From contig OZ237735.1 of the NCBI GenBank assembly GCA_965178125.1, positions 1,488,001-1,552,000 of the forward strand: a stretch of 64,000 bases of DNA, given 5' to 3'. The position numbers were made by a program, and so were the translations under genes. Below, piece after piece: positions 456 to 61,100 of the stretch. The stretch comes from Bilabrum cf. latius (lineage: Eukaryota). A model generated the notes under the pieces. It searched no databases and had not been told where the DNA came from. It saw only the letters and a program-made list of their open reading frames with translations. Within the stretch, counting starts at the first letter, position 1. Every line of letters begins with the position of its first letter.

Positions 456-2741
456 TCATGAGCCACCGGTTGACGCAACGGTAGACACCGCTTCCCGCAA
501 CGACGCTGCGGCAGCGAGGTTGTCTTGCGCTTCCTTTATCGTTATCCGTCTCCCTCGGGCCTCTGCTGCTGCGAGTAGGGTCGCTGTCGGCACGACAAGC
601 TGCTTCTTGGCCGCCGCTGAAACGTGCTCGGCCACCGGCAGAGCAAGTGCTGCCTAGAGAGCGAGCGAGCGCACGCCACTGCCGGCACTACTCGCGCTCC
701 CAGGCGCACTCTCAGCACCCGCCTAGGCATCCCCCGACCCCTCCTCTTCCTCCTCATCGATCCCGTGGATAGCCCTCACGAGGCACCTCGTGGCCTGCTC
801 GGGGGAGCAGCCCGCCAGCGAGGCAGCCAGATCAGCTGCCCTGCCAAAGAGCTTCATGTTGGTCACGCTCAGATTGATCATGCGGTTGCCGAACACGCAG
901 CCCTTGACAACGTGTGCGAGCGTGCTGACGCAGTTGAGCGCCAGCTTGGTCGCAAGGTCCTCCCCGCACGTGGGCAGCCGAGTAGGTGCTCCGGGTGAGC
1001 GAGCAGATGATGATCCATTGCTGACAGCATCCTCGGCAGCAGCACCCGCGCTAGATTTCTCTTTCTGCTTCGAGAATGAGTACAGCGCAATGTCTTGTTC
1101 GTCCGCATCGACCCTTAGCGTCACACGGGTTCGATCCGGGGAGGATCCGGTGCCAGCCGTACTGGCTCCACCAGCGGAAGCAGCCGTGCTGGCCCCACTG
1201 CTATCGCACACGACATCGATGGTGCATCGCTGGCACCCGCGAGCAACGGCTGCATCCACCACTGCTTGCGCAGCCCTGGGCAGCCTGATACCATCACTCG
1301 TCACACCTATCGCGTGTTCCCCGGCCACCAAATTCACATCGATCACCACGTCCTCCGGACCCATGGCAGGCAAATCCTCCCGAAGCACGGCCTCGGGCTC
1401 CACGATCGACCACCACCGCCTGGGCGCAGGTCCTGCCCCTGCCCCTGCCCCTACAGCTGTCTCCGCTCTTGTTGTTCTTGTGCCACTGTCGCCACCGGCT
1501 TGTTCTCCATCCTTGCCACCACTAATCAGCTCGCAGCTAGGGGCTAGCAGGCCCGGTGCCGCCATCCCGCCCGCACTCGTCACACCTGGATCCACCCAGC
1601 AGCACCACACGTCCCTGGCGGCTGCCCCGAAGGTCGGGGGGCACTCGCTGCTGTCCACGACACCCAGCAGCCCGGCTGTTCCCTGGGCCACGTAGAGCAC
1701 CCTAGCACCCGAGCGCAGAGCCCGGCCCGCCGCCCACGCCACCCTGGCTAGCCCCCCAACGTCGCTGTAGGCGGCATCCATCGCCATGCACTGCCGCTGG
1801 ACGAATCCGCGTAGCCAAGAGAGCGCCGCCCCTCCGGTTGCAACCTCGGCGGCGGGCCGGAGGGCGAGCATGGCCGCTGCTTCGAGGAGCATCTTGGTTG
1901 CGGTGCCGCCTTTCATCCTGGTGCTGCCGGTGACGGCCTCGGGCCCGACGACTGGGTTCAGGAGCACTTGCTCGGGGGCGGGCGTGCTCGCACTCGATCT
2001 GGCATCGGAGGGCGTTGCCGAGCCTGCGATGAGCTCGGCAGTGGCAGCATCCATCGCAGCTGCGATATCTTTCATGGTCGTGTCCCACCCTGCCACTGCA
2101 GTCTTCTTCAGAAGGGAGACTGGATTGAATCCGAACAGCGCAGAGGTGAACTAGCAACCGAGACCGGCCAGAGCACCTGCTTCAGCTGCAGAGACTTCAT
2201 CACCGTTAAGGCTCCTAATCGCCTAAAGCTGCGAACCGACATAGGTAGCGCTCAGCCCGCAGGTTATTCCCACAAGGAGAACTCGACTTGGTCTGTGCAG
2301 CTGCACCAATCGAACCAGATCTTCGATGCCGGCTTTGGCAGAATCTTCAACATTCTCGCGCGGCGAAATGATCGCGTCTGGCCCGCCCGCCATCAAGTAG
2401 CCAAACTTATTACCCTCGGAATGCCCTGCTGCGCGCGCGTACCGGTTGAGCTTGGTAGCCAAGGCATATCCGATTCGCCCTGAAGTGCCGCACCCGCTAA
2501 AGATGATCAATCCGGGGGCTGCAGGATCGCAGCAGCACGCTCTCATCTACTAGCTTAGCAAACTCAGTCTTTCCAACTGGTCATGATCAACGCAACCTGG
2601 GTAATGCATGTATCCGCCAAGTACCTGAGCATCGGCTGATCGCAGTGTGCGAAGTGCACCAGCGAGCTGATCCGCCGAAGGGCTATGGGCATCCAATGAA
2701 ACGGTCAAAGGATTTGTCGTCTCTGTTATTCTCAGGCTCAT
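456..2741 (-). CDS. GCKR: Glucokinase regulatory protein-like (tandem SIS domains, MurQ/GCKR family), ~761 aa, 6 internal TAG
   Basis: One frame from ATG 2741 to TGA 456 through TAGs at 2550, 2547, 2223, 2151, 723, 654. Motifs SGCGTSGRIG, VGITCGLSATYVGSQ, GFNPVSL, LNPVVGPEAVTGSTRMKGGTATKMLLE, KLALNCVSTLAHVVKGCVFGNRMINLSVTNMKLFGRA. The C-terminal lid segment (HVSAAAKKQLVVPTA...EAQDNLAAAASLREAV) appears only after reading through 723 and 654. Confidence 0.88.
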
Positions 2742-2913
2742 CTTCCTATCTCAGGTTTTCGCGATCTTGGCCATCGCTGGTTCGTACTGGTTCCGCAACT
2801 TGCGACCTAGACTGCGCGGCGCCACAACGGAGCGAGCACGTTTCACACATTCTCTGCTGGACGCACCGGCATATCGCCTGCTCGCTCAGAACGCAGGAAA
2901 GGCAATATTTTGT

Positions 2914-3972
2914 ATGTCATCTCATTCAGGAGCAGGGCGAGAAGAGCCTGTACCGCATCCTGATGCCATTAGCAAGAGAGAATTGTTCTGCTCGTCCTGC
3001 GGCACTGACCTCCTCGCCACAAGCAATCCACGACCGAAACTGTACAAGACGAAGTGCGGTCATGTTTTATGCAAGAGTTGCACCTTGTAGTGTCGAACGA
3101 AGGAGCATGGGACCCGTTGCAAAGCGTGCAAGCATCCGCTCGACCTGCGCAACTTCGACCTGTTCGAAGTCAAGCTCTACCGTGTACCTGATTTAGATCA
3201 GTCCCTACTCTCGTACGCAACGGGATTTCCCGAGCTCATCATTGGGAAGATCGTCCCCGAGGCGTTCCAGACGGTTGTGCAGCAGCAACGAGATGCGATC
3301 GCTCGCCACGATGACTTGCGACGCCATTTCGAGGCTGAGACTGGACGTCTGCGGGCCTAGCGGGACGAAATAAGGGCAGAAGCCCTAAAACTACACGATG
3401 AAGTTGTACACCTTCGGGAAAAATTGGCCAGCGCGGAGTCTAGACTCGAAAAGATGCATCATGAGGCCCGGTCGATGTCTGTCGGAGCTCGCCCGGCTTT
3501 CCGCGATGTGATCGGAGGCAAATTCCAGCGCGAAGGACACCACCAACCGAGCATGGTACCAGACGTATCGGATCCAACTGCCCTAGTCCTGGTTGACCGC
3601 GCTCCGCAGAGGAGTCCGTCGCACCGTGCCTCGAGCGCGCAGAAGAGGCGAAGCCAGTCCCGTGGCTTGCAGCGGTACGGTGTCCAAGCAGCTTTCGGGC
3701 ACGGGGAGGACCGCTCAAGGGGTCCAAGCGTGGCATCATCGGGTTCCAGGCGCAGACATCTGCGCGAACTGGCCCCTGGTCCGCACTCCGTCGCGATGCA
3801 GGACGCCGTCTCGTCAGTTCGCTCGGCCGCGTACGGGAGCGGTGCCGCGGAAGGCGGAGCAGATCGCCGGGACCACGTGGTGGGCTCCTCCGGGTACCCT
3901 GCCCGTCCATCGACAGCAATGGTTCGGGAGACCATCGGAGCGGATGTGCGGACTGGCACGCAGCTCCTGTGA
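2914..3972 (+). CDS. C3HC4 RING + coiled-coil + disordered tail protein (RNF212/Zip3/HEI10-like architecture), ~352 aa, 2 internal TAG
   Basis: CSSC..LYKTKCGHVLCKSCTL*CRTKEHGTRCKAC: the last zinc-ligand pair lies beyond TAG 3088. A coiled coil spans TAG 3358. Ends TGA 3970-3972. Confidence 0.75.
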
Positions 3973-4064: not shown

Positions 4065-7000
4065 TCAAACTTGCAAGAATGTGACGCTCCCCCACTTTGC
4101 AGTGACGGAAGCATCAGCCACGCGCGGCGCACCTCGCCCCTGGGCTCGTCCGGCCGGCTTGCCTCCAGCCGCGGAGCTTGCGCCTGCAGGTGTACCTTGA
4201 GCAGACTTCGCCTCGAACAGTTTCTTTGCATCCGACATGCTGGTCTGCCCCTGCGTCCTGCTTCTCTTCCTCCTGTCCCCATCTCGATCCCCTTCAGCCA
4301 CTTCCTCCCACTTGTTCCCTTGGCACAGCACCGCCAGCACCCGTCGAGACTTGCCCTCCTTTGGCAGCTGCGCCAGCGCGGCGTCCAGCCGCAGAATGGC
4401 CTCCACCGACGTGCCAATCTTCACCTGTCCAATGCCCAGGGAGGGCGAGTCCGAGGGATGCCTCGGCGGGTCATGACCGACCATGCTGGAGCTGGCCCCA
4501 GCTGCTGAAGCCTCCGAGCCAGGGCTGCTAGAACTGGAGGCCCGCGTGCCCTGCGCGACACACTGGATCACACGCTCAACGTCCGACTGCACCATCACGC
4601 CGCCCGCACCCGCAGGCACCTGCAGTATATCGCACCCACCCGTCGCATGCTGCTGGCAGAAACCGATGCTGCCCGCCACCACGCATCGCGGCGGGCTCAT
4701 GGACTCGATCCCCACAGCGAGGGAAGCCTCGTTGGCGGCCACACACGTCCCGAGCAGCTCGTCCTCTGTGAGGTCTTGCGCCGCTCTTCTTCTCTTTGCG
4801 CCAGCTCCCCCGCCTCGCTGAGGGCCCCTTTGCGGCACGGGCTTCGCCACAGGCTTGTGACCCTCAGCGGCCAGCTTCCTTGCTCTGTTGGCGTTGTGCA
4901 GGTACGCCGGCACGTGTCCCCACGCCGTGTGGTACATGCCCCACGCGGGCCCGCCGGCACACCTACGTAGCAGGAGCTCGAGCGCGGCGGAGGCATCCTC
5001 TGCAGAGTCGTGCGGCACGACCGCTGGCTGTGAGCCGTCTGCCGGTGCAGGGGGTGCCACCCTGATGCGTCGACCCAGTTGTCGCTCGCACAGGTACTTG
5101 AGGCTGCTGCGGCTGGGGAGGCCTCGCCTGTGCTCGAACTGCAGGGCAGAATCGCAAATCCTGTCGTGGGTCAGCCGCAGCGAGATGAGATCGTTCTCGA
5201 GGCCGTGCCCCGCCAGCACCCCCGATGGCAGCAGCACCTCTTTGAGGCTGGGCGATCGATCGGCGGTCGGACTGCAGCCCACGTCAAGCGAGCGAGCGAG
5301 CGCCTGTCGCACCACTGCAAGGTCGGCAGTGGCAGCCTCCATATGCTCTGGGGTGATACCGCTAAACCTGAATTCGTAGTTGGTGATCCTTCCCGCCGGT
5401 CGCACGTGGTGGTCGGCTATCGTGCGGCCGTGCGCATCCACCACGGTGAACCGGGCCAGGTCCTTGCTCTTCTCTACCGTGTCCACCATCTCGCAATCCA
5501 GGCCGAAGGGCGTGACGGGCACGGACGCTGCCAGCATCCCAAGAGGCGGCACCGTCAGGCTGCTGCCATCCCCAGTGTCGAGCTGGAGCGAGTCCTCCGT
5601 GCTGCTGCTGGATCCCTAGTAACCCGCTGCTCTCCAGGGCACGATCGGTGCCTCTGGGAGCGCAGGGACAGAATATGCCATCGCAAGGCCAGCAGCAGCA
5701 CCATCGCTGGATGCATCAGCTTGCACAACTGCAGATGTCGTCACAGACGAGAACGCGATCGCAGCGCCGGCCTCCTCAGGCGACGGCAGCACGGGCTCCA
5801 CAAACACGGGGCGACTATCTTCGTGCTCGGCATCGTGCTTGTCCGGCATCGTGACTGTCACCCTAACTGAGTCCAGGTAGTCTGCAACTGGTATGCTCGA
5901 CCTGGCCTCGCTGGCACCTTTGCGCCCCGACAGACGGCAAGACATCACCGCGAGGCACAGCGAGATGGCAACTGCCATGGCGTCCTCCTCCACGTGCCCG
6001 CCCACTGGGTTCCTCGCTCGGAAGACGGCTTCCTCATGCGTGCTGGCGGGGGGCCTGGGCCTCTGCTCCACGGCTGCAGCGGCCGCCTCACGGGCTGCTC
6101 GGATGGACGTCAACAGAGCAGAGGCAGATTCTTTCGGCAGCAGGGGAATACCTCGGGACTGCAACTCCTTCAAAGTGTCTGACCTGCTTTTTGCCCCTTC
6201 TGCACCCCCTGCGCTTGGATCTTCAACTGTGCGCAGCTGGTGCATCTTGATGGCTTGCATTGCCACCTCTCTCAGCACGCATCGAGCGGCAAACGCCCTG
6301 GTGCAAGTTGGCGCGTGCTCCGGAAGCAGTACGCTCGCTGTGATGGTAGTGCCGTTGGTCGCGCCTGCAGGCTGCTTGACATTGCTAGCAGTAGCGGCGC
6401 TGGAGCTGCCGGTAGTTGCGGCTGCGCTGCTTGAGCCTGCAGCCGTGCTTGGCCCCGTCGCTAGATGCACGACCACGGGAAAATGAACGAAGCCCTGGGG
6501 CGCCTCGGGCTCGCCGCTGCCATCGCTGCCTGCCGGTGCATCTGACCCAGAGGCTGCAGGTCCTAGTGGTTCCACAGATGATGCTCCAACCGCTGAGCTC
6601 TGCCCCACTTGGATGGATCGCTCGGCCACCATCGCGAACGGGAAGGCAGCGCATCGCAGCACCGTGGGTGTGTCGCAGTAGGCGCGAAAGGGGAGGGGGC
6701 CATGGGAGGCCGCGGCTGCCACTGGAAACAGGGGTCCTCCTGTCGTTGCAGGCTGAGGATCCGGCGATAGCATTGCCCCAGATGCTTGCTCCGTCGTGGC
6801 GACACCAGACGGAAGGTCATGCGACTCCCCTGCTGCTGCGGCTGCTGCCGTCGACTACGAGGCGGCGGAGGATGAGGACGACGATGACGCAGACGATGAT
6901 GAAAATGCAGATGACTGTGAGCCTTTAAGCCCAGCGTCAGCATGCACGTCGCCAGCAGCTCGGCGCACCGCGTCATGCACCAAAAATTGCGAGCCCCTAG

Positions 7001-7812
7001 CAAGTGCTCCACGCCCCACCGAGCGAGGCAGCGGCACCCAACAGAGCCGCTGGGCGATGGTGTGCCTGTCGCCCCTGTTGTTGTAGCACTTGAGCAGGAG
7101 GGTATCGGTGGCGTAGCGGTGTCGATCAAATCGATCCGCTGCTTTGCTGAGTTGGTCTGCGATAGGACCGAGCAGGGGTCCGAGCTTGGCTCCGCTCGTC
7201 GTGGCAGCGAGTGCCGCGGCTGACAGATCCGCAAAGCCAGGGCCGTTCACAAACAAGAAGCCAATGCCGTCCATGATGGACCGATTTTGTGGAACAACCC
7301 GCGTAGGGGGCGGGTTGTCACCGGACAGGGCTGCTTGAACGGCGAGACTCCAGCACAGCCAGTGGTGCACGTCCTGCGCGGATGGACAGGTGTGCCAGCT
7401 GAAATATCCACATGCATACAGTGGTTGAAAAGGATGCACCTTCCCTGGTATGAATACTCACATCAATACCCAAGAACTCTTTCGTTTGTCCTTTTTCACC
7501 AGCAGACGAGTGGTCCACTTCGGTTTTGTTGGGATGCAGAGTTGGGCATACTCTCGCATTCTAGCCGTCCCCAAACAGGACCCTTTTCTCCATCTCGCTC
7601 AACATTCGGAAAGGAACACTTCCGATTTTCGCATCGCCCATGCCTACTCCGTGGGCACTCCCTGCTTGGCAGCGCTTGCGAAGCTTCTTCGTTTTACCCT
7701 TGTCGGCCACAGCAGATTGTGGTTGTGCGCTCGAGACACTCCCAGATCCGCCAGCGCTGCCCCGCGAGCTTGATCCATACCCTTGCGCTATTGCAAGAGA
7801 GCCTTTCTCCAT
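4065..7812 (-). CDS. DEDDh 3'-5' exoribonuclease (REXO1/REXO5/SDN-like); exons 7812-7462 and 7373-4065; 3 internal TAG
   Basis: Motifs FGLDCEMV, LARFTVVD, ITNYEFRFSGIT, LAGHGLENDL, DSALQF, PHDSAEDA. ORF pieces share a frame across TAGs 6855 and 5616; first exon crosses TAG 7561. Ends TGA 4065. Confidence 0.85.
7374..7461 (-). other. Spliceosomal intron (88 nt, phase 0) in exoribonuclease gene
   Basis: GAT|GTGAGT...CCGCGCAG|GAC joins EFLGID to DVHHWLCWSL. The alternative acceptor at 7399 leads to a premature TGA. Confidence 0.65.
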
Positions 7813-8139: not shown

Positions 8140-11100
8140 TCAAGTGAAATGGGCGTACATGTGAGCGCTGTCGTCCAGCTGCACGCTCTTCATGCGGATA
8201 TTCTCGTGGATCTCGTTGACGAAGTACTTGGCCGCCTCGTCTGGAGACAGCTCCGGCTGCATGTGCTCCCTGAGCCACTCGATGTCGTCCTTGGTCTGCA
8301 GCTCGGGGATCCCGCAGCTGGTCATGAGCGAAAACAGGGTCACGAGCAGGTCGCGCGCCCCTTGCCGGCGAAGGGCGTTGTACGCCTGCACGCAGTACTT
8401 CTCGAAGCGACGGAACATCGGGCCGGCCTTCGTGCCCAGCACGTGCGCCATGGCCGGGGTGATCTTGAAGCTCGACTTCTCCCTCTTGTACCCCATCTTG
8501 ACCTTGAAGTTGCCCAGAAAGTGCCCAAAGTCGATGTGGAAGAAGGTCCCGTCCCTCTTCATCATGATGTTGTCCGTGTGCCGATCCCCGATCCCCATCG
8601 CGAACGTCGCCACGCAGTAGCCGGCCAGAGACCGAGCAAACCTGTCCTGCGCGGAGATGTACGCCTGCTGGATCATCTGCTGCTCCGTCGCGCTCCTCCC
8701 CCGAAGCGTAGACTCGAAGGCAGCTTCCTGGGCGGCCAGTGCCTGCTGCTCGCGCTGCAGGTCAGCGGGAGTCATCATCTCCGCCCGCGCGCCGCCGCCG
8801 GCGCCCCCTCGAGCAGCGCCCCCATCCCTCGGGCTGTGCACAGCCACACCGTCATCGTCCTCGAGCACGACTGCCGCCAAGCGCAGCGCCTGGCCCGACT
8901 CGCTCGCATCCGATGGCATGGCGTACCTCGAGTCCGTCCTCGAGAGCATCGACCGGCCGTCCTCCAGCACCCCCTGCTCGGCCGCCTTCATGTCCCTTAG
9001 CTTCTTCCTCGTGGTGGTGGCCACCTCGCGCTTGAGCCAACGGGAGAGCATGTGCGGGGCCCACACTGCGCGGAGGGCCTCCATGGTCCTGCCGAGCCCC
9101 TTGGGCATCTGCTTGACCTCCTCGCCGACGATGGAGGCTATCGTCTCGGAGTTGGTGACGATCTCAAGCATGCCAAGCATGTCTCCAGTGCTCACGCACT
9201 CGTACGCGCTCATGCAAAGGTCGAGCTTGGCTGCCTTCCAGATCGTGTCCATCACGCGGAACACCTGCAGGGTCAGCTGGTCCTGCCGCAGGTCGTCGCC
9301 GTTCTTGTACATGACGATGAACGGCTTGCGGTTGCGGGGCTCCATCACCTCGCCCGGCACCGGGTCGGCCGGCTCGAAGGTGAGCATGAGCGGCAGCTTC
9401 TTGCTGCTCATCACGCGGCACTTGTCCACGATCACGCCCTTGGCCACGAAGCTCGGCCGGATAGGCAGCCGGAACCGGTCGGGGAACACGATCTTGGACA
9501 GCTCCCTGCGAGCCACGACCACGCGGTCCGCCTTCTTCTTGCACTCCTTGACGGCCACCGACACGTCGAACAGCCTGCTCATCACGTACATCTGGTGGCC
9601 CAGAGCCACTCGGTGCTTGCGGCCGCAGTGCCGCAGGAATAGCTCGAGCAGCAGCATGTTCCTCTCCCGGATGTCCTTGTCGTGAATCTCCGCCGTCAGG
9701 TACCAGAAGAAGGCGTGCCCCACGATCCCTGGGTTCACGAGGGCACGGCGCAGCAGGAACCGAGCCAGGGCCGAGTCATGGAAGGCCTCGAATTTAAGCA
9801 CCTGCACCAGCTGCAGCATGTACATGACCAGGTCCTCGTCCGACAGTGGCTCCAGGCAGCTCACGGCGTAGGCTCTCACCTTGGGGTCCGGGAACTGGCT
9901 ATCCAGCAGCTGCAGGGCCTCCAGTGCGCCGGGCACAGCCCAGATGTGCAGCAGCCTGTAGACCTGCTGCACCTGGTCGCGCTGGGTCCAGTCGACCGAC
10001 TTGAGCACCTTTGCCAGGGCGGTCCGATGGTGCGAGAGCAGCATGCGGGCGTCCCACACCATGGCTCGCTCGGCGGGGCTCAGGTTATGGAGAGGATCTC
10101 TCCTCATGACCTTGAGCAGCTCTGGGCCCACTGGGTCGCTGGGGTCTGGCCGAGGGGGCAGCGTGGCGTCCTCCTGCCCGTGGTCCGTGAAGATGATCGG
10201 CTTGGAGGGCTGGGGCAGCCTCAGCTCCAGGATGGGCGCCTCCGGGTGGAGCTTCCTCTCGAAGGCTTCCCTGTCGATGTCCGAGCCAGTCTTCATCTTC
10301 TTCTGGATCTTGTGGCGAACCTTCTTGATGTCCGCGGCGAACCCGCTGTGGTTCCTGTTCTCCAAGGTGGTGGCCATCGATGTGGGGCAGGGCCCCGGCC
10401 ACAGCCGCAGGGACTGCTTGCCGGCCCTCATGAGCTTGTTGTACTGGAACAGGGTCATGCCGGCCCACGCCTTGGCCTCCCCGTTCACGAGCACCGTGAA
10501 GATGATGCGCACGCCCCTCGGCAGCCCCGACAGCGCCACCCCGGTGACCAGCTCCTGGTCCACCTTGGCCACGTGCCGGTCCGCAGCCTCCGGAAATTGT
10601 TCCCCAACGTTGTTGGCCTGAGACCCCTCTCCCACCGGCACGTGCAGGGTGTCATCGGTGCCTGAGATGAGAGCCTCCGCGTCGTCCTCGTCACCGAAGG
10701 AGCTAGAGCTGCGCTTGCCCTTGCCAGTGGCTGCTCCACCCCCAGCACCCGAGGCCGCGCCACCCGTGCCCGTGCCCTTGCCAGACCCCGCCATGGCCTG
10801 CGAGAACCCGTCACCGGGCCGCGTGCCTTGATTCCACTCCTTGTCCAGCAGCAGCGGCACGGGCTTCGTCTCTCGCTGCAGGTCGCCCCCCAGCTGATCC
10901 ACTCCGTGATAGAGCTGCACCCTCACGCTGAGCGACTGCTCGCCCGCAAGCAGCCCGTAGAGCGCGCTGCGAGACACCACCGGCAGCCCCTTGACGGACT
11001 CTACGCGCATGGTGAAGGGATGGCTGCCGGCGTGCCAGGTTGGCGTGAACCGGAGTGTGTCGTCTAGCGCAAGCTCCGTGGCCATCTCTGCCATGGTGGC

Positions 11101-13670: not shown

Positions 13671-13703
<33 letters not shown>

Positions 13704-26100: not shown

Positions 26101-27014
26101 ACAAAAAGCACGCCCTCGCCGTCATGAACCCGAACAAGTGCCTCGCACTCGACGCTCTCCTCAAGGTGCATACGTCCCGGCCAGGCGACAAGGTGATCGT
26201 GTTCAGCGAGAGCGTGTTCGCCTTGTACGAGTACGCAGTCAAGTTTCAGGCTCCCATCATCTCCGGTGACACGCCCATCAAGGACAGGGAGGAGTACCTC
26301 CACGCGTTTCGCTCATCGGACGTGGTGAACGTGCTGTTCCTCTCGCGCGTGGGCGACGTGGCCCTGGACGTGCCCGACGCCAACGTGATCATACAGATAT
26401 CCTCGCACTACGGCTCCAGGCTGCAGGAGGCACAGCGCATGGGCAGGATCCTCAGAAAGGGCTCGAGACAGTCACAGTCCGATGCCGGGATCTCTGTGGG
26501 CGGGCGGGAGCTCTTTTAGAGCTATTTTTACACGCTCATCTCCACGGACACGCACGAGGTGTACTTCAGCAACAAGAGGCGGAGGTACTTGGTAGACCAG
26601 GGCTACGCCTACAAGGTGCTCAAGCTGTTCCCTGGGCTTGGCAGCGAGCCTGAGCTGAGGCGGTAGGCTCGCTTCATGGGCAACGATGATGAGAGGCTGC
26701 AGGTTCTGGAGGATGTGCTGTCCAAAGACGTGGACGCGCAGGAGGCCAAGGAGGCAAAGGCGTTCGACTCGGTGACGGATGGCCTGCAGCAGCAGACGGG
26801 AGATGCTGCCATTCAATCGGCGCTGAGGGGAGGCCTGGGTGCAGGATCGCTGGCCAAGTCTGCCGCTGGCGGGTCTGCCTCTGGTGCGGTGCGCTCAGCC
26901 GGAAGTATGGCAACCCTGTCTGGCGCGGATGGCATTCGGTACATCGAGTATACCGCGGAAGACAGGGCCCAACACGCGCGTGATGCGGCTGCCACGAGCG
27001 GAAGTGGCACTTAA
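23152..27014 (+). CDS. XPB: TFIIH helicase XPB (ERCC3/SSL2); exons 23152-23544 and 23631-27014; ~1,258 aa; 5 internal TAG
   Basis: SRPFWVCPNG..LEAFSP..DFLIAICEPKSRPEHLHEY; YGKVKLVL; LRPYQ..KMFGNGRARSGMIVLPCGAGKT; DETH; LGLTATLVRED; QISSHYGSRLQEAQRMGRILR; then ELF*SYFYTLISTDTHEVYFSNKRRRYLVDQGYAYKV after TAG 26517. Other TAGs at 23973, 23982, 24576, 26664. Ends TAA 27012-27014. Confidence 0.95.
23545..23630 (+). other. Spliceosomal intron (86 nt, phase 0) in XPB
   Basis: AAG|GTGAGC...CATTGCAG|GTT gives LNRLSK-VPVPRAV, collinear with XPB. Confidence 0.9.
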
Positions 27015-27176
27015 TGTTGACCTTTAATATTGACCGCATTGTTTCAGCTATCTCTGCGACCTCCTCCTTTGCATACAAGACTGCGTGCCCGCGGAGCTTG
27101 CGACCGGTGCGACCAACGGTCATCAGGTCACAGCTCATTCAGGCACAAACGCTACCTTAATGCGACATCTTGAGTA

Positions 27177-49800: not shown

Positions 49801-52800
49801 CTGTCGCTCTGGCTTGCCGTCTTCCTACTGCTGCTGTCGCCGCTGCTAGTTGCACTGCCGGGCAGTCTCGTACGTCTCCGCCTGGGCTAGCCTTGGCTAC
49901 CTGCTTGGCTACGGCCTCTCAGCGAGCCTCGATCCCCGCGAGTCCCCGGGTCAGACTGCGTCCGCTCAGTGCTTGCATCACCCCCGTTCATATCTAGCAG
50001 GGATTGCTCGTCTTCCGACGTGTGCTCGGCATGTTTGACAGGAGCCCCAACCGGAATGACCTGCCTCCTACCACCAATCCATGTGAGGGGGGCAGAGACC
50101 GTAGACGCCACATTGGTTGCCAGCCCGCCGACTACCCTTGCAGTTCCTGCCACCGCCCTGGTAATGAGCCATGGCCTAGTTCCCTCCGCTGAAGCAGTCA
50201 AAGCGTCCTTCCGTGGCGGTTCTGACTCGCCCTTGTCGTCGTACCTCCCACTTAGAGCTGGTACCGCGGCTGGCACTGGCAGGGGTCCCGAGCCGGCCGC
50301 AGCACCGGCTTCCGAATTGGTCCCCGAAGATGGATCTACTCTACGTGAAGCACGCACGCGTGCGGGCTGATCTGCATCTGCACCAGGCCATTCGGACCCG
50401 AATGCTCGCTTGGCAGAGGCCGAGGTGCATGGCGGCGGCGTCCTCAACAGATAAATCTGCCCAGGCTAGAACATCCTGTCGTGTTCCCCCTGCACCTCAC
50501 TAAGCACCGCGCGAAGCGCTGCTTCTACCTGCGGGGAGGTTTCGCCGGGCTCCAATTGATCCGATTGCTCCGCTGCGCCAGCCCCAGAGGCTGGACCGGA
50601 CTACACTGGCCCTACCGAAGATGCAGTCGCTTCTGTTGCGGCGTCTTCTTGGGCGTCCTCCGACGAAGGGACAGCGATGGAAGTATCGCCAAGCCCGACT
50701 GCCCCACGGCTCTCCCCTTCCGCCACGGAGTTTGCTGCGCTCGTCAGCCGCAGCTCAATCGGGGCCTCCTGCTGGTCCGATGACAGGGGCACATGGCCTG
50801 GAGTGGGGCCGAGCAGGTCGCTTCCCGGCCGAGCAGAGTGGCTAGCAACGGAAAGACTCGGACTGTCGGGCGCTTGCTACCCTATGGACTTGGTCCGCTC
50901 CCGCAGTCGGCTGACTGTGCGGTGCATCGACCTCGCGGTGACGATCCCCGAGTCGTGCTTCTTGTACGCGTTGGGTGGAGGAGACTGCACCGAACCGAAC
51001 GCCCCGGATGTAGCGGCACTAGCCCTATCCGGGTCTTCTTCCACATCAGCAGAGCCGATGGCAGCTCCTGGCTTGCCGCCCTCCTAGAGTTTGCCAGCGG
51101 CTCGTGACCCTGCACCGCGCTGCTCCCCTCCCATAAGCTCGGCATCGGCCTGTCCAGCAGCCCCAGCAGCACTGTACTTGGTCTTCTTATCATCATCGCT
51201 CTCTTTCCCACCCTCTTCTTTCAAGAGCTCTTCGATGAAGCCAGGTTCCGCATCGCACACCTTGCCCAGCAGCTGCAGCAGCTCGCGCACTGTGAGCAGG
51301 CTCAGCCTGGGCACGGCGTCGTCCTCGTGCACCACGCAATGGATGCACTCGTTTGCCTCTTTGCTCACGGCGGAGAGGGGTGCAAACACTGGCGGCGGGC
51401 CAAAGGCGAAGCAGCTCACATCAACGCCCGCAAACGGCACCAAGTCTCGGTTGATGTTTGCATCGGCCAGCATGCTGGCTCGATGATCGAGGAGAAGCAT
51501 CGTGAACAGAACAGCCACGCCCCCACCAAGGCTGTGCCCTGTTACTGCAAGCCCATAGCCTGGGTACACATCTCGCAGCCAGAAATCGAGTGCCAGAGAC
51601 CCCTGTTCCTGGAGCACCTCCATGGTCTTGCGAATCAAGTCGTCATCCAGCGGGGACGGCCCTGTCTCGTCGTCCTGTGCACCGCTCGAAGCGCCCTCTG
51701 CCGATCCTCCTTTGTCCTAACCGCTGGATCCCTTGCTGGAATCGCTACTCTATGGTGGAGGCGTACTTGACTTGACGTGTTCTCCCGCACCACCGCCGCC
51801 CGCAGCCGACGGGACTGGTCCCCTGAGCGCACTCTGGTACAAGGCGTGCGCAGACGTGGCCATGCCCTCGTGCGCCTCACCTTTGAGGAACGGAAGATGT
51901 GCTGCCGTGAGATCCGTAACCAAGTCAGTCATTGACATGGTGCCTCGCACCGCGAGCACGAGCCTCTTCCTCGCGTGGTCGGCTAGCAGCATGTGCTTGG
52001 GCAGGGTGTAGGGGTTGAGGGCCCCGCCCCCTTCCGCGATGCGCGATGATTCGCGGGCGTGCCAGTCCACGACGTGCTGGTAGGCCTCTGTGCTGGAAGA
52101 TTTGTCGGCGCCATCCCCGCCTGTTTTGCCCCCGTGGCCAAGACCGCCTATCGTAGAGACCGCAGAGGACACTGCCGACCCGAATCCTGCCACCGCAGTA
52201 GCCAGGCCCCGGATCGTGCGGCCCACCGTGCTCTTCCACTCCCCGTGCAAGTAGAGAACGTCGGAAGAGCTGGGAAGACCCAGCTGCGAGGAGACCGTGT
52301 GCCTGTCTCCCATGGCAGCGTGCGCCATCGTGTGCAAGAAGTGCCCGGCCCTGGTGGCCATCGAGAACAGGCTGCTGTGGTCTCCCCGCAGGGATGGCAG
52401 AGAACCCGAGGCGGACTTGGCCGGCAGCGTCTCGGCGCCTTCCTGGGCTGATGTATCCGGCGGTGATCCCGACGGAGTCGATTGGGTTGTGGCGATGCGT
52501 TCGTCCTCGCCGGCAGCGGCTATACTATGGTCCGAGCTCGGGCCTGCCTGAGAGGTCTCGCTGAGACCCCGGGCTAGCTGAGACGGAACGTCCATTTCTG
52601 TTGCTGCAGCTTCCATATTAAAAGAATGAAAGAATATGGCACCCTACCATCCATATGTTGCCATGCAGCATCTCATCAGTGGCAGCGCATCTCGAGCAAA
52701 ATCTCGCATCTCGGCGCCTCGCATGCGACGCATCCCGGCCCCGTCAAACCAATCGTGGCTCGAAAGAACATCAAATGTGAGATCAATATCGTCGTGTTCA

Positions 52801-53054
52801 GACTGTGACAATATCAATTCATGCTCTCTGGCCGCACCAACAATCCTCACTGATGCCTTTTCGATGTCCTTCAGTTCAGCTACACGAACAGCATCATTGT
52901 GCCGCACAAGTCGCAGTAAAGCCGCAAGCAGCGACGAGAGAGAATGCCCACCGGCATCCCGTCCCGCAATTGGCAGGAGTCGCTATTCGACAGTGTCGAG
53001 CGCACTCTAATGGGATTCAGGTAGCAACCTGCGAAGAACAGCCTGCAGCGCCAT
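46857..53054 (-). CDS. Class 3 lipase (DAG-lipase-like) with very long low-complexity insertions, ~2,065 aa, 17 internal TAG
   Basis: CMATYGW*G; DHARKRLVLAVRGTMSMTDLVTDL; AHEGM; VTGHSLGGG; FAFGPPP; HEDDAVPRLS; RMF*PGQIY; C-terminal IPDHMPDRY. One frame from ATG 53054 to TGA 46857. Confidence 0.82.
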
Positions 53055-53335: not shown

Positions 53336-56300
53336 ATGTCAAGTGCGATCGGTGTGGCCGTTGTGGTTGCCGTGGTGTTGCTGCCTTCAGAGGCGCGAGA
53401 ACCGCTCAATGTTGCTTCGAGGTGCTTCAGTGGTACTTTTCGAAACCTGAATAGCAGAGTACTTCCGTTCGTGGAAGGTTGTCCTGGCTATAGCGTTGTT
53501 CCGGCAGGATTCGTTGGTACGGCTACCGGTCCGAAACCGTGTCCAGCTGGGCTATTTCAAGATCAACCAGGTCAGAGCGAGTGCCAAGTTTGCCCAGCAG
53601 GTTCATACTGCCCACTCCGAGTACCAGCTGACGGGACACCCATGGACCTACACCGGCACTTGACCGAGCGCCAGGTCCAGCAAGTGTCAGGCACCAAGCC
53701 CGCATCCTTAGGGGGGTTCGCTCGGCAAGGCGCCATTGAGCCAACAAGGTGCTCTGGGCGACAGGTCTATTGCCCAGAGGGCTCTGCAGCTCCTGTTAAG
53801 GTCTGCTCGGGCTTCTACGCGGTGGGCGGCGATCCGAGCGGGGGCGCAACCTCGGAGCAGCCATGCCCGCTGGGCACGTACTGCGATGGCTCAGCCAGTG
53901 CCAGTGGGGGCGGCAAGCCGGAGCTGTGCCCGGCAGGCAGAGCGGGTACTCGCACGGGTCTATCATCGGCGATGGAATGCGAGCTGTGCGAGGCAGGGCA
54001 CTACTGCCCCGCAGGCAGCAGCTCAACCACCCAGCGAACCTGCCAGCCTGCACTGCACGGTGGTGAGGCAGCGCAGCTCGCAGCGGGTGGGCAGCAAACC
54101 GTAGGGTCCACTGCAGGTGCCACCGGCAGGGCCCTACTGTTCCCTGAGAGCAGGGAACAATCCATGGAGGCAGCAACGGCGGGACTCGCTCCAACCGACC
54201 GTACCGCGGCGGCCCTTCAAGCAGCCAGGACTGGCTCTGCGGCGCCCTCCGCCGCGCTGTACTGCCCGCCGGGATCGGCAAAACCACGCCTAGCATCTCA
54301 GCTTGCGGGTCCTTCGGGCGGCGCGCAGTACACGGCGACCGATTCGACCAAGATGGGAAACGCGGTCGATCTTGCTTACCTGGCTGCGCAGGTTCATGCG
54401 GCTCCCGCGGTTGGCAACGAAGCCTAGCAGAAAGCAACACAGGACGAGTCTTTGAACTCCCTTGACGTCCGCTCGGTTGCCTCGATTTGCCCACCAGGAC
54501 ACTACTGCGCGGCCGGCATGCGCCTGCCGTGCCCGCCAGGCCGCTACGGCAGCAAAGGGGGCCAGACGGACCCGCTGTGCGAGGGCCTGTGCCAGCCAGG
54601 GTACTTTTGTCCCGCTGGATCTTCGTCTCCCAGGGAACAACGATGTGGTGACCGCACGGTGTACTGCCCTGCCGGCAGCGCTGAGCCTCTGCGGGTGCCC
54701 GCTGGCCATTTCGGCGTCAGCAGCGTGGGGGCTGACAGGCAGCACGGCACTGTGCCCTGTCCCGCTGGCCACTACTGCGAAACCGGGACGCCCGCGCCGG
54801 TTGCGTGCTCTCCTGGCACGTACAGTGCAGTTGTTGGCGCCGTGTCGCCGACTGTGTGCCTTCCTTGTGCCCTGGGATTCTACTGCCCAGACCCAGCCAC
54901 CACGGTCCCAGACGCCGTGCCCTGTGGAGGCCCGGGCATGTACTGCCCGCCTGGATCCACCGCGCCAAAGCAGGTGGAGCCCGGCTGGTTCACGGCTCGG
55001 GTTGTCCCCCGAGGAGACGCACCCTCCCTCACTAGCAGCAGGATCGGGCTCGTCGAATCAGACGGCACTGGTACACCTAGCCACGGCGGCTCGATCGAAG
55101 TGGACCTCGGTGTCGTGTCGAGGGCGGCGATCCAGTTTGCGGTGGATACCAGGCTGCGGCAGAGACCGGTGTCTCCGGCGGGGGCCCCCGAGCGCGCAAG
55201 CGTAGTACGCTTGGCATCTGCGTCGGAGCTCCTGTTCCCCGTCTCCGACGAGGCGGCCAGAATCGCGCTGCAGAGGGCCTTGCGTGCCGTGCCCGCTGGA
55301 CCAAGCTACCATGCCTCTGGAAGCTCTGCGGCCGCCCGAGCTAGACTGCTGGCTGCTGTCGCTGCCTCCTCCGGCGCACCGGTGTACTTGCCTGGCGCTC
55401 CGATCTACGAGGACCCGTCGGGAGGCTACATCGCGGGGAGCCCGCAGCGAGATCTGCAGGACGTGTCGCTGAGTGCCGCCTGGGTGCGCGAGCTGCCGGG
55501 CGATGCGAGAGACACTGCTTCCCCGGCGCTGTTTGCGAGCCCCTCCGGATTGGGGCCAGTGGACGTCAATGGGGATGGCACGGTGGCTGGGACAGTGGGC
55601 CTTGAAGAGGACGGTTGGACGGCGGTGATGCTCTCCGTGGCGAGCACGCTGGAGGGCACAGCCGTTCTTTCGGATTCCCCCGCCGGTGTCACGCATGGGA
55701 ATCGCGTCGAAGACGACAGGTCGCAGCTCCTGAGCTCAGGGCAGGGCACCCCGACTCGTCTCCTCGCCCTTGTTGGTGGCCCCGTGGTCTCGGAAGGTCC
55801 AGGGAGATCCGTGCGTGTTCTTGCCGCATCGGCGCTGAACGACACGTCCAGCATCCGCACGGATGCCCTGAGGTGCCCCCCCGGGTACTACTGCCCCGGT
55901 GATGGGGGGCTCTAGCCGTGTCCAGCCGGCACTTGGTCGAGTGAGTTCGGTGCCACCAGCGCGTCGACTTGTGCTCCATGCGACGCCGGCTATATCTGCC
56001 CGCACGAGGCTACGGTAACCCCTCGATTTCAGCAGTGTGGTGCTAATGATCTCTTCTCTGCTGCCGGCTCTACTTCCTGCACCCAGGTGCAGCCGGGCTA
56101 TGTGACCACTGGACCCAGCCCCGTGGCACGAACTGGCTTCGCGCCTTGTACGGCCGGCAGTTACTGCGTCCTGGGCGTGTCTCACCTATGCCCTGCTGGA
56201 AGATACGGCTTATTGTAGAACGAGAGCAGACTAGAGTGCGAGGGCGACTGCGAGGAGGGCTACTTCTGCCCCGAGGGCTCTACCAGCCCGAGGCAGCAGC

Positions 56301-58084
56301 CCTGCGGAGACGTGTCGCTGTACTGCCCGCCGGCCAGCAAGGCGCCCGCCAATGTATCTGATGGTTACTACACGATCGGGGGGCGGACACTGGAGAACGG
56401 AGGCCGCAGTGAGGCGGACCGCTCAATGCAGTGCAGCAGGCTATTCAAGGACCCGGAGGACAGCACCCTGCCGGAGCCTCAGCTCGAGTTCCTGCTGCGC
56501 GGTGGGAACCTTACTCTCGATGCGCTCCGTCTGTACGGCATGGATGCGCCCAGGAGGGATCGAGCGTGCTGGTCAAGCGCGATGGGCGACTCAGAGTCGA
56601 GGTCAGGCCAGGCACAGTGCGAGCCTGGCTCGTACTGCTTCCAGGGCAGGAGGTACGAGCTGCCGCCAGGGCGGTTTGGGGCAGCCGCGGGCGAGACGAA
56701 CCCGCTAGGTCAGGGTATTTGCAGTCCGGGCTACACTTGCGGATTTGCTAGCACCACGCCCACCGAGAGAGAGTGCGGCGACCTGACACTACTATGCCCT
56801 GCAGGTGCGGCAGTTGCCACACCCGTGTCGCCAGGGTACTACTCAGACCCCCATCAGCCACCATCTCGACGCACCCGGCAGATCATAGCAGAGGCAGGGT
56901 ACTATGCCGTTGACGCGCAGCTGTATGCGTGCCCCAAGGGGCGGTTTGGATCCGGCCGGGGCCGCACCTCGGAGTCAGCTGCCTGTCGGAACTGCGACGC
57001 AGGCTGGTACTGCCCGGACGAAGCCGGGACAGACCCGAGGGCGTTCCAGTGCGGAGGGTCTAACGTGTACTGCATCGAAGGCAGCTCGTCTCCTCTAGCG
57101 GTACCAACCGGCCACTACTCTACCGGTGGGTTCGAGGGCGAGCCGGGCTGGCCGGACAACACCACTCGGACGTGGTACGAACCGGCCATGGAGGGGCACT
57201 TTGCAAGCCAAGGTAGGCTCTTTCAGTGCCCGGCGGGCCGGTTCGGGAACAGGTCGCTTGAAACGAACCCCCTGTGCGAAGGACCTTGCGTCGCAGGGCA
57301 TTTCTGCCCTCCTGGCAGCGTGAACGCAACTGCCTTCAGGTGCGGCGAGGCCTATCTGCCTGCAGGGTACGAGCAAACCGAGGCTGACGTCCTGGGAGGC
57401 TTGGGCTCTGGACCTGCCAGCGCGGACGCTCGCAGGCTCTTCGACGCCGGTGTAGCTGGCATCCGTGCCCCCGGCAGCTCTGCCACAGGCTCAGTGTCGA
57501 GCACGCTGCTCGGACCCATCGGGGAAGCGCTAGCCGCGAGGGGCCTGGGCCAGCGTGGCGTCCCGCAAGAAGCCTCCGATGCGGTGATCCAGTGGGAGAG
57601 CACCGTGCGGGGCAAGCTGCCAAGGACCGAGTTTGAGATTCCCAGCGACGCCAGCGTTGCAGAGAGGGTCATAGTCGGCGGGCCCTCGTCCATATACTGC
57701 ACCAACGGATCCAGCCTGCCGAGGGCTGTGCCATCTGGCTACGTGTCGGTTACCAAGGGCAAGGCTGATGGGAACAACGACACTCGAGATGGGATTTCGA
57801 GGTGCCCGCCGGGCTTCTACTGCCATGGAGGTATCGTGGAGCCGTGCCCGCCTGGTACGCACGGTGGTGGGAAGGCAGGCACGGTCAAGAGGCAGTGCGC
57901 CGGGCTGTGTCCGGCGGGTTCGTACTGCCCGCTCGCATCTGCGGAGCCGATCCCATGTCCGCCAGGGCGGTACAGCAGCGGTGGCAACACGGAGTGCGCG
58001 CAATGCCCCGGAGACTCGCTGGCAGTCTCGTGCTAGACGGGCCGACATTGCTGCATGAGACCGGCACGGGGGAACACAGGTTGA
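53336..58084 (+). CDS. Secreted cysteine-rich repeat protein (CPAGxYCP / ephrin-receptor-like GCC2-GCC3 repeats), ~1,582 aa, 4 internal TAG
   Basis: Signal peptide MSSAIGVAVVVAVVLLPSEA; many CP(A/P)G(Y/H)YCP, CPAGRYG and C.G.C..GYFCP.GS....Q..CG units continue in frame across TAGs 54425, 55913, 56216, 58034. Ends SC*TGRHCC...TGA 58082-58084. Confidence 0.85.
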
Positions 58085-58182
58085 GCTGACTTGAGAGAGA
58101 GAACCATTTTTGCTGAGTGATCATATTTTACAGTTGCGAATGCAGACTTTCTGCTTGTGGGCTGCAATTAACCCCGGGATGC

Positions 58183-61100
58183 TCAACCCTCCATGCTGGC
58201 TTGCCCCGACGCCTCACTAGCACCGCCACTATCCGCCTTTGGACTTCCAGACTCCTGCTGCTCACCACTCGCCTCCCCTTCAGCTTCATTATCGCCGCTG
58301 CCCTCGGCGCTCTACTCGGCCACTTCCGCTTCGGGACCACCGTTACCTGCTTGCGAAGACGCGGCGTGCTTGTACGCCGACGCCAGTGCCGCCTCCTGCT
58401 TGCGCAAGTTCATTGCATGCACAAGAAGTCCCATTTCAGTCGCGTTGTGAGCCACTGCAAAGGAAGGCACGACGCTAGTTGATTCAGCAGAGCCAGCGGC
58501 AGCTCCTGCGGCGTCGGTCAGCCCAGTGTCCTTTTCAGACCGAGTCGTTGGCCAGGGCTCGCTTGGCAATAGCTGCAGCTCGTGCGGCTTCTGCAGCAAC
58601 ACATTTAAAGCCGGCCCGATCTCCACACAGCTCTCGAACACGTCTTTTCGCCCGAACACATAGAGCCCGAGCCGAGCACGCGACAGCGCCACAACGAGAC
58701 GACGCACATCGCGCACGTGGCCCACCGCACGGGTTCGCACGAGACTCAGCAGCACGATGTCGTTCTGCTGTCCCTGGTATTTGTCCACGGTCTCGATCTT
58801 CCGAGGCAAGCCAAACTGCGGGAATGGCGCGCATCGCTTGGCAACGACGTCCCGCAGCAGCGCCACCTGGCCGTTGTAGGTCGACAGCATGGTTATCTTG
58901 TCGGCGGGGTACCCCAGCAGGCGCATGTACTGGAAGGTCGCCACAACGAACTCTGCTTCGCCCAGGTTCTGGTAAAAGTATGGCGTAGGCGTGTGCTCGC
59001 CCTAACCCATGAAGTCGGGAACGTCAACGAATTGCGCAGTGTGACAGAAGCCAGTGTTTGCATGCAGGTAGGCACCGCTGAGTACGCGAGGCAGCGGCAC
59101 AAGGCCGCCGTACCTCCACGAATACGCCTGTGCAATGCTTGGCCTTGCGCGGCCCTGGGACTCGAGCATGACGTAAGGGAAGCCCAGCCGGACCATGCGA
59201 GCGAAGAGCGACTGGTCCAACTTCGAGTACCTCTGCAGAGGGCGGCACTTGATCACGGGCGGCAGCTGGTGATGGTCTCCGATCAGAACCACGCGCTTGA
59301 GCCGAGAGATCCGGCTCGCCTCTCCTGCCGCTGCCGCAAACCCGCTCGACCCGTGCCTCTATGATGCCTGCATGAACATGGGAAGAAGCGTCTCTGCCTC
59401 GAGCACCTGGGCAGCTTCTTCCATGACGATCGTGTCATACTCGAAGCCGAGCTTCATGAGGTGCCGCCGAGTGAGCGCCGCGTGGGTGCAGGTCATCGCC
59501 ACTACCCTGGCTTCCTTGACTAGCATGTAGTCCGTTCGCTGACGCTGCGAGCGCAGCAGCTCGAACGCCCTGTAGGACTCGAGCTCCTCGAATACCTTGG
59601 CCAGGTGCCTCTCGCACGATCTGGCAGCATCCAGGTCCTCTTCGAAGCTCCTGCCCTTGAACAGCGCGTTGGCGCCGCCGCTAGCTGCGGCGGCGCTGGA
59701 GCTGCTGCTGGGCGAGGCGCCGCCAGCCAATTGGGTTAGCTCCGGGGCGCAGAGACCTGCAGGAACGTCGGCAAAGTATCCTTTGAACGGAAACGACTCA
59801 AAGATTCTCCCAGCCAGTTCGGATTCGCTGGGACCAGCCCCACTTGCACCCGCACGGCGTTGCGCTCGCAGCTCGTCAATATCGGCCCAGAAACGTTCCA
59901 GCCGGGCTTGCACGTGCTGCAGCCGGAAATACGACGCCGTCTCGCACGTATACTCTGGCAGGGAGACCTGCCCCCCGGGTCCGCGAACACCCAGGCCGAG
60001 CGTAACCGCGAGCCGACCGACCTGCCGCAAGAGCATCTGGCGCCTCTGCAGCGCCTCATTGACTCTGCCCCACTTGCTGAAGTCTTCATCGGAATCCAGG
60101 TCTCGCTCGCCTCGCCCAAGACGCAGCAGATGCCTCCCGTCTACGTCCCTGCCTGCGATCTTCTGAAACAGGTCGTTCAGGGCCTGGTTGCTGTGGGTCA
60201 CGAGCAGAATGCGCTCTTTCGGCCGGGTGCGATATAAGGTCGATACGATCTGCACCGCCACATCAGACTTGCCCGTCCCTGGCGGTCCGACTACCAGGGT
60301 AACTCCAGGGCACAGCCCCGACCGGATTGCCTTGGCCTGAGTGGGGGTGAACGGCACTGGATTGCGGGGGGCTTCGTCGGTGGGGTAGGGGCCAGGAGCA
60401 GGCTTGAGCTGCTGCCGGATAGTGATTGCACCCTCCTCCTCACGCACACGAAAGGGGGGCTGTAGCGCGACCTCCTGAGCAGAGCCTGCAGGAACTTCCT
60501 TCCCGAGCGCATCGAGCAGGCGCACCGCCTTCGGACCCCCAGAGAAGCACTGCCTGGCGTGGGCCGCGTTGACGAACGTATCACCCATGTCAACTACGGC
60601 AGGATAGCCCGGCAGGCGCTCAGGTGACGCCGAGGCGGGGTCGCCGTAGCCGAGCAGAAGCCTCTGCAGCCACGTCGGGATGCCCTGGCCGAGGGCATGG
60701 GCGTTCATCACGTCACGCAGGCTCTCCAGCACCGCCCTGAAGTTGTTCTCCTTCGCGTCTCTTCGCACCACGAGATTAAATTCGGAATAGGCTTCTGCGC
60801 CGGTGCCGGTGCCCCTCGCCTCATCATCACCGCCCTCCACTTCGCGAAGATCCAGGTGGTACTGGGCGGCATCAAGCCTCAGCCTGAGAACGCGCCCGGT
60901 ACCCTTCGGTTCCGGTAGGCTGCCGCCGGGAGGCACGGCAGAAAGGTCGTTGAAGTTCTTGCCTTCCTCGTCCAGGTGCGCGGTGACTTCCGCGCCGCGC
61001 ACAGATCGGATGCCCCACCGCATTGGAAACTCGGGATCTTCCGTGTCGTCGCCCAGCGACCGGGGCCTGAAGCTCTCTGCATCGGCGCTGGAAGCAGGCC

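Follow-up and report, generated by a model that had tools for sequence, protein, structure and literature searches.

In-frame UAG, most likely glutamine, and its separation from UAA in 64 kb of G+C-rich eukaryotic DNA

The DNA examined here, called the window below, is a stretch of 64,000 nucleotides from an assembly deposited as Bilabrum cf. latius (GCA_965178125.1; contig OZ237735.1, positions 1,488,001 to 1,552,000 of the forward strand), and positions are counted from its first letter. Its guanine plus cytosine (G+C) content varies between 57 and 66% across the 64 kb and is about 60% overall. Once TAG is taken as a sense codon, long open reading frames (ORFs) are densely packed on both strands. 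There are 16 such ORFs, and 14 genes after corrections to the models, namely the removal of an ORF at 21758-23038, the merging of two ORFs into one GH115-like gene, and the extension of the XPB gene to 23152. According to Pfam, the encoded products are eukaryotic and include XPB/ERCC3, the spliceosomal helicase Aquarius, a PI3-kinase, and GKRP/SIS, GH115-like, cadherin/FG-GAP, lipase-domain and Cys-rich proteins, along with orphans. UAG and UAA carry different meanings in this DNA, because each of the 14 genes uses TAG as sense and not one of them uses TAA in this way. This decoupling had been proposed in an earlier note made from the sequence alone, and the present analysis supports it.

The genes with recognizable families place TAG inside conserved coding sequence. 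The XPB/ERCC3 helicase gene is found at 23152..27014 on the plus strand (1258 codons, 5 TAG, TAA end at 27012-27014; Pfam, PDB alignment and RNA). The gene for Aquarius, an intron-binding helicase, occupies 58183..63420 on the minus strand (at least 1745 codons, 6 TAG, TGA end; Pfam and PDB). Also on the minus strand are a glucokinase-regulatory-protein/SIS-like gene at 456..2741 (761 codons, 6 TAG, TGA end; Pfam GKRP_SIS_N, 3.5e-28), a PI3-kinase gene with cyclic-nucleotide-binding (cNMP-binding) and GAF domains at 8140..15873 (2577 codons, 6 TAG, TGA end; Pfam), and the GH115-like glycoside hydrolase gene at 31536..34285 (880 codons, 5 TAG, TGA end; Pfam and RNA). Homology spans TAG on both sides in XPB, Aquarius, GKRP and GH115, and alignments to solved XPB, Aquarius and GH115 structures, as well as to database homologues, pass through the TAG positions. 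Read with the standard code, the PI3-kinase would be cut off at codon 24 and Aquarius at codon 362, in both cases ahead of the catalytic domains, and the cadherin-like protein encoded at 34535..45646 (minus strand) would stop at codon 2.

Among the 19,172 sense codons of the 14 genes, TAG is found in frame 103 times, and TAA and TGA not at all; the uncorrected set of 16 ORFs (19,364 codons) gives the same three counts. Every one of the 14 genes carries in-frame TAG. Twelve genes terminate in TGA, which is never a sense codon here, and two in TAA (XPB at 27012-27014 and an orphan gene at 31398-31400). The earlier note had reported the same gene number and the same terminators, as well as an absence of internal TAA, and all of these hold. 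Its figure of about 108 TAG codons was slightly too high.

The absence of TAA from the reading frames greatly exceeds what chance would allow, because 15.3 to 40.2 would be expected beside 103 TAG if the two codons were synonymous, with a binomial probability of zero between 6.5e-7 and 1.8e-15. This expectation comes from A- and G-ending codon ratios in the same genes, which are 0.148 for TTA/TTG, 0.248 for AAA/AAG, 0.309 for CAA/CAG and 0.391 for GAA/GAG. As the earlier note remarked, CAA is common (176, against 569 CAG). NCBI table 6, in which both UAA and UAG encode glutamine, is used by ciliates, hexamitids, some ulvophytes, oxymonads and Amoeboaphelidium, and a code of this kind would leave the present observations intact only if TAA were simply too rare in 64 kb of GC-rich DNA. 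A-ending codons are indeed in the minority at 57 to 66% G+C. However, 176 CAA, 302 GAA, 101 AAA and 27 TTA codons are present, and even the lowest of the ratios, 0.148, predicts 15 TAA (probability of zero 6.5e-7). The letters TAA are also not scarce as such, with 57 and 54 examples in the two other frames of the same ORFs and a further 98 on the two strands of the 5.9 kb that separate the ORFs.

The ORFs had been bounded by TAA or TGA, which could make the absence of internal TAA circular, and the frames were for this reason read again under table 6. In this reading no two gene frames merge, and none acquires homologous sequence. Only two frames are extended at the 3' end, XPB by 2 codons (27014 to 27020) and the orphan gene by 149 codons (31400 to 31847), and the four 5' extensions all lie upstream of starts or within an intron. 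In-frame UAA at glutamine positions, by which table 6 would be recognized, was found nowhere in the gene set. The window resembles table 6 organisms in that UAG probably encodes glutamine, but differs from them in having no TAA where 15 to 40 are expected, and we consider a table 6-like code to be extremely improbable.

Contigs assembled from four public sequencing runs were compared with positions 23000-35000 of the window. Run X1 yields one unspliced contig over this region. Contigs of X5 and X6 skip 86 bases at 23545-23630 (GT..AG), which is the XPB intron, and contigs of X5 and X8 skip 107 bases at 33017-33123 (GT..AG on the minus strand), which is the GH115 intron. Because their contigs skip one or both of these introns, X5, X6 and X8 are RNA. 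With the XPB intron removed, the upstream exon becomes continuous with the rest of the XPB frame, which regains its N-terminal domain; the spliced frame was checked, and gives exon 1 at 23152-23544 and exon 2 at 23631-27014 on the plus strand. Likewise, removal of the GH115 intron turns two ORFs (31536-33016 and 33124-34285) into one gene whose frame was checked, with exon 1 at 34285-33124, the intron at 33123-33017 (GTAAGT..CCGCAG) and exon 2 at 33016-31536 on the minus strand.

The X5 contig over XPB (23147-27048) has no letter that differs from the window. Two long X5 contigs span XPB, the orphan gene and GH115, and contain 26 TAG codons without a differing letter. Editing of UAG in the RNA is excluded, because these 26 TAG codons are unchanged in contigs from spliced RNA. 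The possibility that the ORFs are pseudogenes was also rejected, given TAG in 14 of 14 genes and genes that are transcribed and spliced. Evidence was drawn from the covered parts of these contigs, leaving aside in X6 the contig stop at 31395 and the stretch 31421-34228, and in X5 the stretch 27049-27149 between contigs. Acidic, GA-rich coding repeats are present at 24236-24257 and 24674-24706 in XPB and at 30933-30959 in the orphan gene, and these draw partial contig matches and false joints. Apparent joints at 24256/24674-25111 and at 30936 lie within such acidic low-complexity repeats and were rejected as repeat artefacts.

UAG might also be context dependent, in the manner of Condylostoma or Blastocrithidia, being read as sense inside genes and as a terminator near the 3' ends of mRNAs. 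Terminators of this kind would be invisible by construction when TAG is read through. In three genes a TAG occurs 15 to 42 codons before the assigned stop, in tails that are non-conserved, and the XPB RNA contig ends 34 bases past the TAA, a hint of short 3' untranslated regions. However, TAG is evenly distributed along the genes and shows no depletion near their 3' ends, where the last 50 codons of the 16 ORFs contain 6 against 4.3 expected, although a set of 14 genes gives this comparison little power. Moreover, the 55 codons of GH115 that follow its last TAG are conserved in the database relatives P0308 and P0309 (94% and 64% identity) through to a common C-terminus, and the GH115 protein ends at its TGA where both relatives end. 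A TGA or TAA closes the coding signal in every gene, and neither occurs in frame. We consider a context-dependent UAG to be improbable.

Whether UAA still terminates translation has to be judged from the two genes that end in it. The TAA of XPB is followed by TGT TGA, and because a TGA (27018-27020) comes one codon after it, only the TAA at 31398 discriminates. That codon closes an orphan membrane protein gene at 27177..31400 on the plus strand (1407 codons, 16 TAG), where it follows an acidic tail. In the same frame a TGA first follows 149 codons later, at 31845-31847, and the frame beyond the TAA runs antisense into the coding end of GH115, which ends at 31536. The earlier note had described both the weakness of the XPB case and the antisense course of read-through at 31398, and both descriptions proved accurate, with the open frame reaching 31847.

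A codon-usage score trained on the other 13 genes and applied to stretches of 45 codons falls from +0.395 over the last 45 codons before the TAA at 31398 to -0.181 over the next 45, with G+C falling to 49%. The stretches past the stops of the other 13 genes score between -0.005 and -0.374, and the one past this TAA is like them. The RNA contig over the orphan gene has no letter that differs from the window, and a terminal intron does not remove the TAA, because the RNA contigs have no joint near 31398. A metagenome scan with the XPB alignment returned 80 loci at 42 to 51% identity, none of them from the clade of the window, and for that reason synteny is of no use for the C-terminus of the orphan protein. 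A protein scan of genome contigs and a search with an exact 40-base pattern gave no match. Termination at TAA is thus inferred from one gene together with the total lack of internal TAA.

An alternative is a code with UGA as the sole true terminator, in which UAA is unassigned, very rare or dual and both TAA ends are incidental. A single gene depends on TAA, given the TGT TGA behind that of XPB, and 19,172 codons are compatible with any in-frame TAA frequency below about 1.6e-4 per codon. On the other hand, both TAA codons that are in frame with a gene fall exactly at the end of the coding signal, and an unassigned codon at the end of an expressed gene of 1407 codons would stall ribosomes. Reading past 31398 would add 149 codons antisense through the coding end of the neighbour. 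In addition, the UAG-only nuclear codes described in the literature all keep UAA as a stop (PMC5304391, PMC11687900). We regard a UGA-only code as quite improbable.

The amino acid encoded by UAG is best read as glutamine, at about three in four. The most specific evidence is indirect and comes from the database protein P0001, a fragment of 588 residues that is 99% identical to the XPB of the window. It begins at the first Met past TAG codon 177 of the window gene and its last residues are ...RLQEA. In the window, the codon that follows these residues is CAG (26433..26435, plus strand), which codes for the Gln of helicase motif VI, QEAQRxGR, a column that holds Q in all 119 of the XPB homologues. 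The end of the P0001 ORF, called under code 11, would be best explained by a CAG to TAG change at this invariant Gln, a single transition. Elsewhere, a TAG directly follows a CAG run at PI3-kinase codon 234 (CAG CAG TAG), and of the residues next to TAG, Q shows the strongest enrichment (1.65 times). HMMER sets the Q of LSEQ opposite the TAG of LSEXW in GH115 in three of the four structures shown.

TAG positions fall in polar, variable columns, where the majority residues are N, G, E, S/P, Q, R/K, E/D/Q and D/E. Two column scores reject the hydrophobic residues, and Ser, Lys, Ala, Gln and Glu cannot be separated by them. A Pfam test was made on five fragments with 12 TAG codons, about 8 of them within or at the edge of the matched stretch, for ten of the twenty amino acids. 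The summed bits were 758.5 for K, 757.4 for Q, 757.3 for N, 756.2 for E, 755.8 for R, 754.5 for D, 753.7 for S, 753.1 for T, 752.5 for A and 747.1 for L. Leucine is rejected by all three measures, at -15.4 log units and -24.7 BLOSUM units in the column scores and 10.3 Pfam bits under Gln, and the TAG columns are dominated by the residues named above rather than by Leu. Among the nearest homologues at the TAG columns no one residue predominates, and a self-BLAST for paralogous repeats gave nothing usable. A hand-anchored alignment of six repeats in the cadherin-like gene places C,C,C,S, then F,S,Q,E,N, then E,R,R,R,Q opposite three TAGs; these are polar except for one F, and not decisive.

Several observations count against glutamine. 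Ser is the top residue in both column scores, 1.3 log units and 3.1 score units ahead of Gln, and in the Pfam sums Lys (758.5) and Asn (757.3) are level with Gln, with Lys, Asn and Glu all within 1.2 bits of it. Relatives show Leu, Ala, Leu and Ser at three GH115 TAG sites, of which the 94% identical P0308 contributes Leu and P0311 contributes Ala and Leu. Finally, the P0001 ORF may end at a contig edge rather than at a TAG.

UAG could be separated from UAA and yet encode another polar residue such as Lys, Asn, Glu or Ser. The Pfam sums for Lys, Asn and Glu leave room for this, as do the first rank of Ser in the column scores and the standing of Arg and Lys, just over Gln, in a score of neighbour context. 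There is also a precedent for serine in the green alga Scotinosphaera (PMC11687900). However, in the 99% identical relative the ORF breaks off at an invariant Gln codon, for which the window has CAG, and TAG extends a run of CAG. Serine in particular lies 3.7 Pfam bits under Gln. In the neighbour-context score, which has an in-sample calibration and puts Arg, Lys and Gln at the top, Ser is 7 log units down and 4.5 log units under Gln. The call of Ser by the column scores is weak evidence, because calibration on true Gln sites often gave Ser or Glu (500 draws were called Gln 207 times, Glu 156 times and Ser 98 times). Serine is thus weakly disfavoured, and a polar residue other than glutamine seems unlikely, though it deserves more weight than any of the alternatives discussed above.

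Taken together, these data support a nuclear code in which UAG is sense and most likely encodes glutamine, following the pattern of NCBI table 15, and in which UAA and UGA terminate, UGA as the main stop and UAA as a minor one. We assign this reading a probability of roughly 0.8. Weighing against it are the sample, which consists of 14 genes, the uninformative TAA of XPB, and the modest size of the drop in coding signal at 31398, since 6 of 91 windows inside the orphan gene score equally low.

In such a code, a tRNA with anticodon CUA would read UAG and would be unable to pair with UAA. This tRNA would probably have arisen from a copy of tRNA-Gln(CUG) with one base changed. The release factor eRF1 would have lost efficient recognition of UAG while keeping that of UAA and UGA. 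The window itself contains no tRNA gene detected by ARAGORN and no Rfam match, and a Pfam-type profile search found no member of the eRF1 family among its ORFs.

Most eukaryotic reassignments shift UAA and UAG together, as the earlier note had stated, and at least 13 coordinated cases have been counted (PMC5304391). The note had also called a UAG-only change mechanistically unusual. Such cases are few, but they are not unprecedented, and the tRNA side is simple, in that a CUA anticodon reads UAG and not UAA (PMC5304391). Changes confined to UAG are described for Iotanema (Gln), the rhizarian exLh (Leu), Scotinosphaera (Ser), and Protocruzia and phyllopharyngean ciliates (Gln, Leu) (PMC11687900).

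The closest resemblance is to Iotanema spirale, a member of Fornicata, in which UAG alone has a new meaning, probably Gln, UAA still serves as a stop, and the same tRNA-Gln(CUA) and weakened eRF1 are predicted (PMC5304391). For Iotanema and exLh the predictions combine a tRNA with anticodon CUA and eRF1 changes, T32G in Iotanema and Ala at position 69 (PMC5304391). However, the primary stop in Iotanema is UAA (PMC5304391), in contrast to TGA in 12 of 14 genes here, and Iotanema is a metamonad, whereas the window is DNA of 60% G+C that groups with stramenopile sequences in two single-gene trees. The ciliates Hartmannula sinica, Trochilia petrani and Protocruzia tuzeti use table 15, with UAG as Gln, UAA and UGA as stops, and TAG spread over the gene body (PMC11687900). 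They differ from the window in having UAA at 93.5 to 100% of aligned C-termini (PMC11687900), where mostly TGA is found here, and the placement of the window is not with ciliates.

The rhizarian exLh shares the UAG-only change and the UAA stop, and is another protist first noticed within the sequence data of a different organism (PMC5304391), but its UAG encodes Leu, which is rejected here. Scotinosphaera shares a UAG-only change outside ciliates and a UAA stop (PMC11687900, citing Li et al. 2021), but its UAG is Ser, which is weakly disfavoured here, and the window falls outside Viridiplantae in both trees. The same codon table, with TAG changed to Gln and called 'genetic code 15', is also known from crAss-like phages (PMC9523058). 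Those are viral, and prokaryotic RF1 and RF2 separate UAG from UGA, whereas the window represents a spliced nuclear genome with a single eRF1. Thus, the type of code, table 15-like, is already known, and the window probably adds a further and independent member to the UAG-only class.

The code appears to extend to at least one close relative. The database proteins of close relatives (P0001, P0256 and P0308-P0311) are fragments that start or stop at in-frame TAG positions of the window. For example, P0256, an 87% identical GKRP fragment, ends at TAG codon 673 of the window gene, and P0308 begins just past TAG codon 250 of GH115. Because the fragments break at window TAG positions, the same code is probably in use in one or more sister taxa whose proteins show 87 to 99% identity, and comparison of these sequences indicates that public gene calls for this lineage are systematically truncated. 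Relatives at a greater distance, namely P0136, P0137 and P0003-P0011 (the last group with 53 to 58% identity across the C-terminal part of XPB), have full-length calls under code 11 and are therefore without in-frame TAG. Together with P0138-P0140, they seem to follow the standard code.

The position of the organism was examined in two single-gene trees, both sampled from top hits only. The Aquarius tree used 44 of 120 hits and left out mostly land plants. It places the window in a clade of 7 rows with a support of 99 in the Shimodaira-Hasegawa-like approximate likelihood ratio test (SH-aLRT), inside a clade of 12 rows (99) that includes the stramenopile Chrysoparadoxa and stands apart from Viridiplantae. 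The XPB tree used 40 of 119 hits, and the program warned of long branches; here the window lies in a clade of 12 rows (100) that joins Phytophthora (96). These trees tentatively suggest an organism allied to stramenopiles. No nuclear stop-codon reassignment in stramenopiles was found in the excerpts of the literature consulted, where the only cases are mitochondrial ones in Labyrinthulea (PMC12152300, PMC12574857).

DNA of the window is present in runs X1-X8, which come from four studies and carry four organism labels, with 0.40 to 1.00 of sampled words matched. The organism may live with, or contaminate, other cultured organisms.

We tentatively put forward a broader interpretation, to which we give somewhat less than even odds, in which a lineage with stramenopile affinities independently acquired a UAG-only, table 15-like code. 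At 60% G+C and with UGA as the main stop, AT pressure would not have driven UAG to extinction before its capture, and two or more sister taxa, with public gene calls cut short at every UAG, would have the code in common. Nuclear codes that separate UAG from UAA are few, and each new independent case tests the routes of code change that are open to eukaryotes. With its high G+C content and prevalence of UGA stops, this case differs from the AT-rich ciliates, and the difference bears on the choice between codon-capture and ambiguous-intermediate models. Assembled DNA and spliced RNA are public in this case, and the predicted tRNA(CUA) and eRF1 change could be read directly from a search of the whole assembly, which was not so for Iotanema and exLh at the time of their description (PMC5304391). 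In practical terms, automated annotation splits the genes of this organism and its relatives at each UAG, as in the P0001, P0256 and P0308 fragments, and the database proteome will remain wrong until the code has been assigned.

Introns in the window are few and short. Two are supported by RNA (86 and 107 bases), and a third is presumed to precede the Aquarius ORF. Homology to Aquarius does not begin at the first ATG but extends further upstream, where no start codon is present, as seen when the upstream frame is compared with P0139. It is likely from this comparison that a 5' exon is absent from the model and that a further 5' intron lies at about 63420-63700. Only 135 bases (31401-31535) separate the orphan gene from GH115, with which it converges, and a single X5 RNA contig crosses both. 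The two transcripts probably overlap at their 3' ends. The spacer between these genes contains a TGTAA motif at 31437-31441.

The remaining genes all end in TGA. On the plus strand these are a RING-finger-like gene at 2914..3972 (352 codons, 2 TAG), whose zf-RING_5 match is under the Pfam cut-off, an EamA-like membrane protein gene at 16178..18316 (712 codons, 7 TAG), a gene without a family match at 18493..20586 (697 codons, 2 TAG), and a Cys-rich repeat protein gene at 53336..58084 (1582 codons, 4 TAG). On the minus strand are another gene without a family match at 4065..7274 (1069 codons, 2 TAG), a leucine-rich repeat (LRR) protein gene at 20665..21759 (364 codons, 1 TAG), the cadherin/FG-GAP surface protein gene introduced above (3703 codons, 24 TAG), and a gene for a class-3 lipase domain protein at 46857..53054 (2065 codons, 17 TAG). 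No gene-like small ORFs were found in the five larger intergenic gaps. The plus-strand ORF at 21758-23038 (426 codons) was excluded as doubtful, being Ser-rich, without a family match, and overlapping an open frame of the opposite strand. Opposite this ORF, a stretch of 363 codons without ATG lies open upstream of the LRR gene (20665-22848, minus strand), and either strand may be the coding one.

Two of the large genes encode proteins of several domains. In the PI3-kinase (8140-15873), the C2, PIK and catalytic domains are preceded by cyclic-nucleotide-binding and GAF domains. Such a fusion is unusual, and it suggests that phosphoinositide signalling is under the control of cyclic nucleotides. 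The cadherin-like protein (34535-45646) combines cadherin, FG-GAP and ephrin-receptor-like modules with a C-terminal membrane span, and includes six C-terminal repeats of about 120 residues each, which share the anchor E[VTI]RRS.

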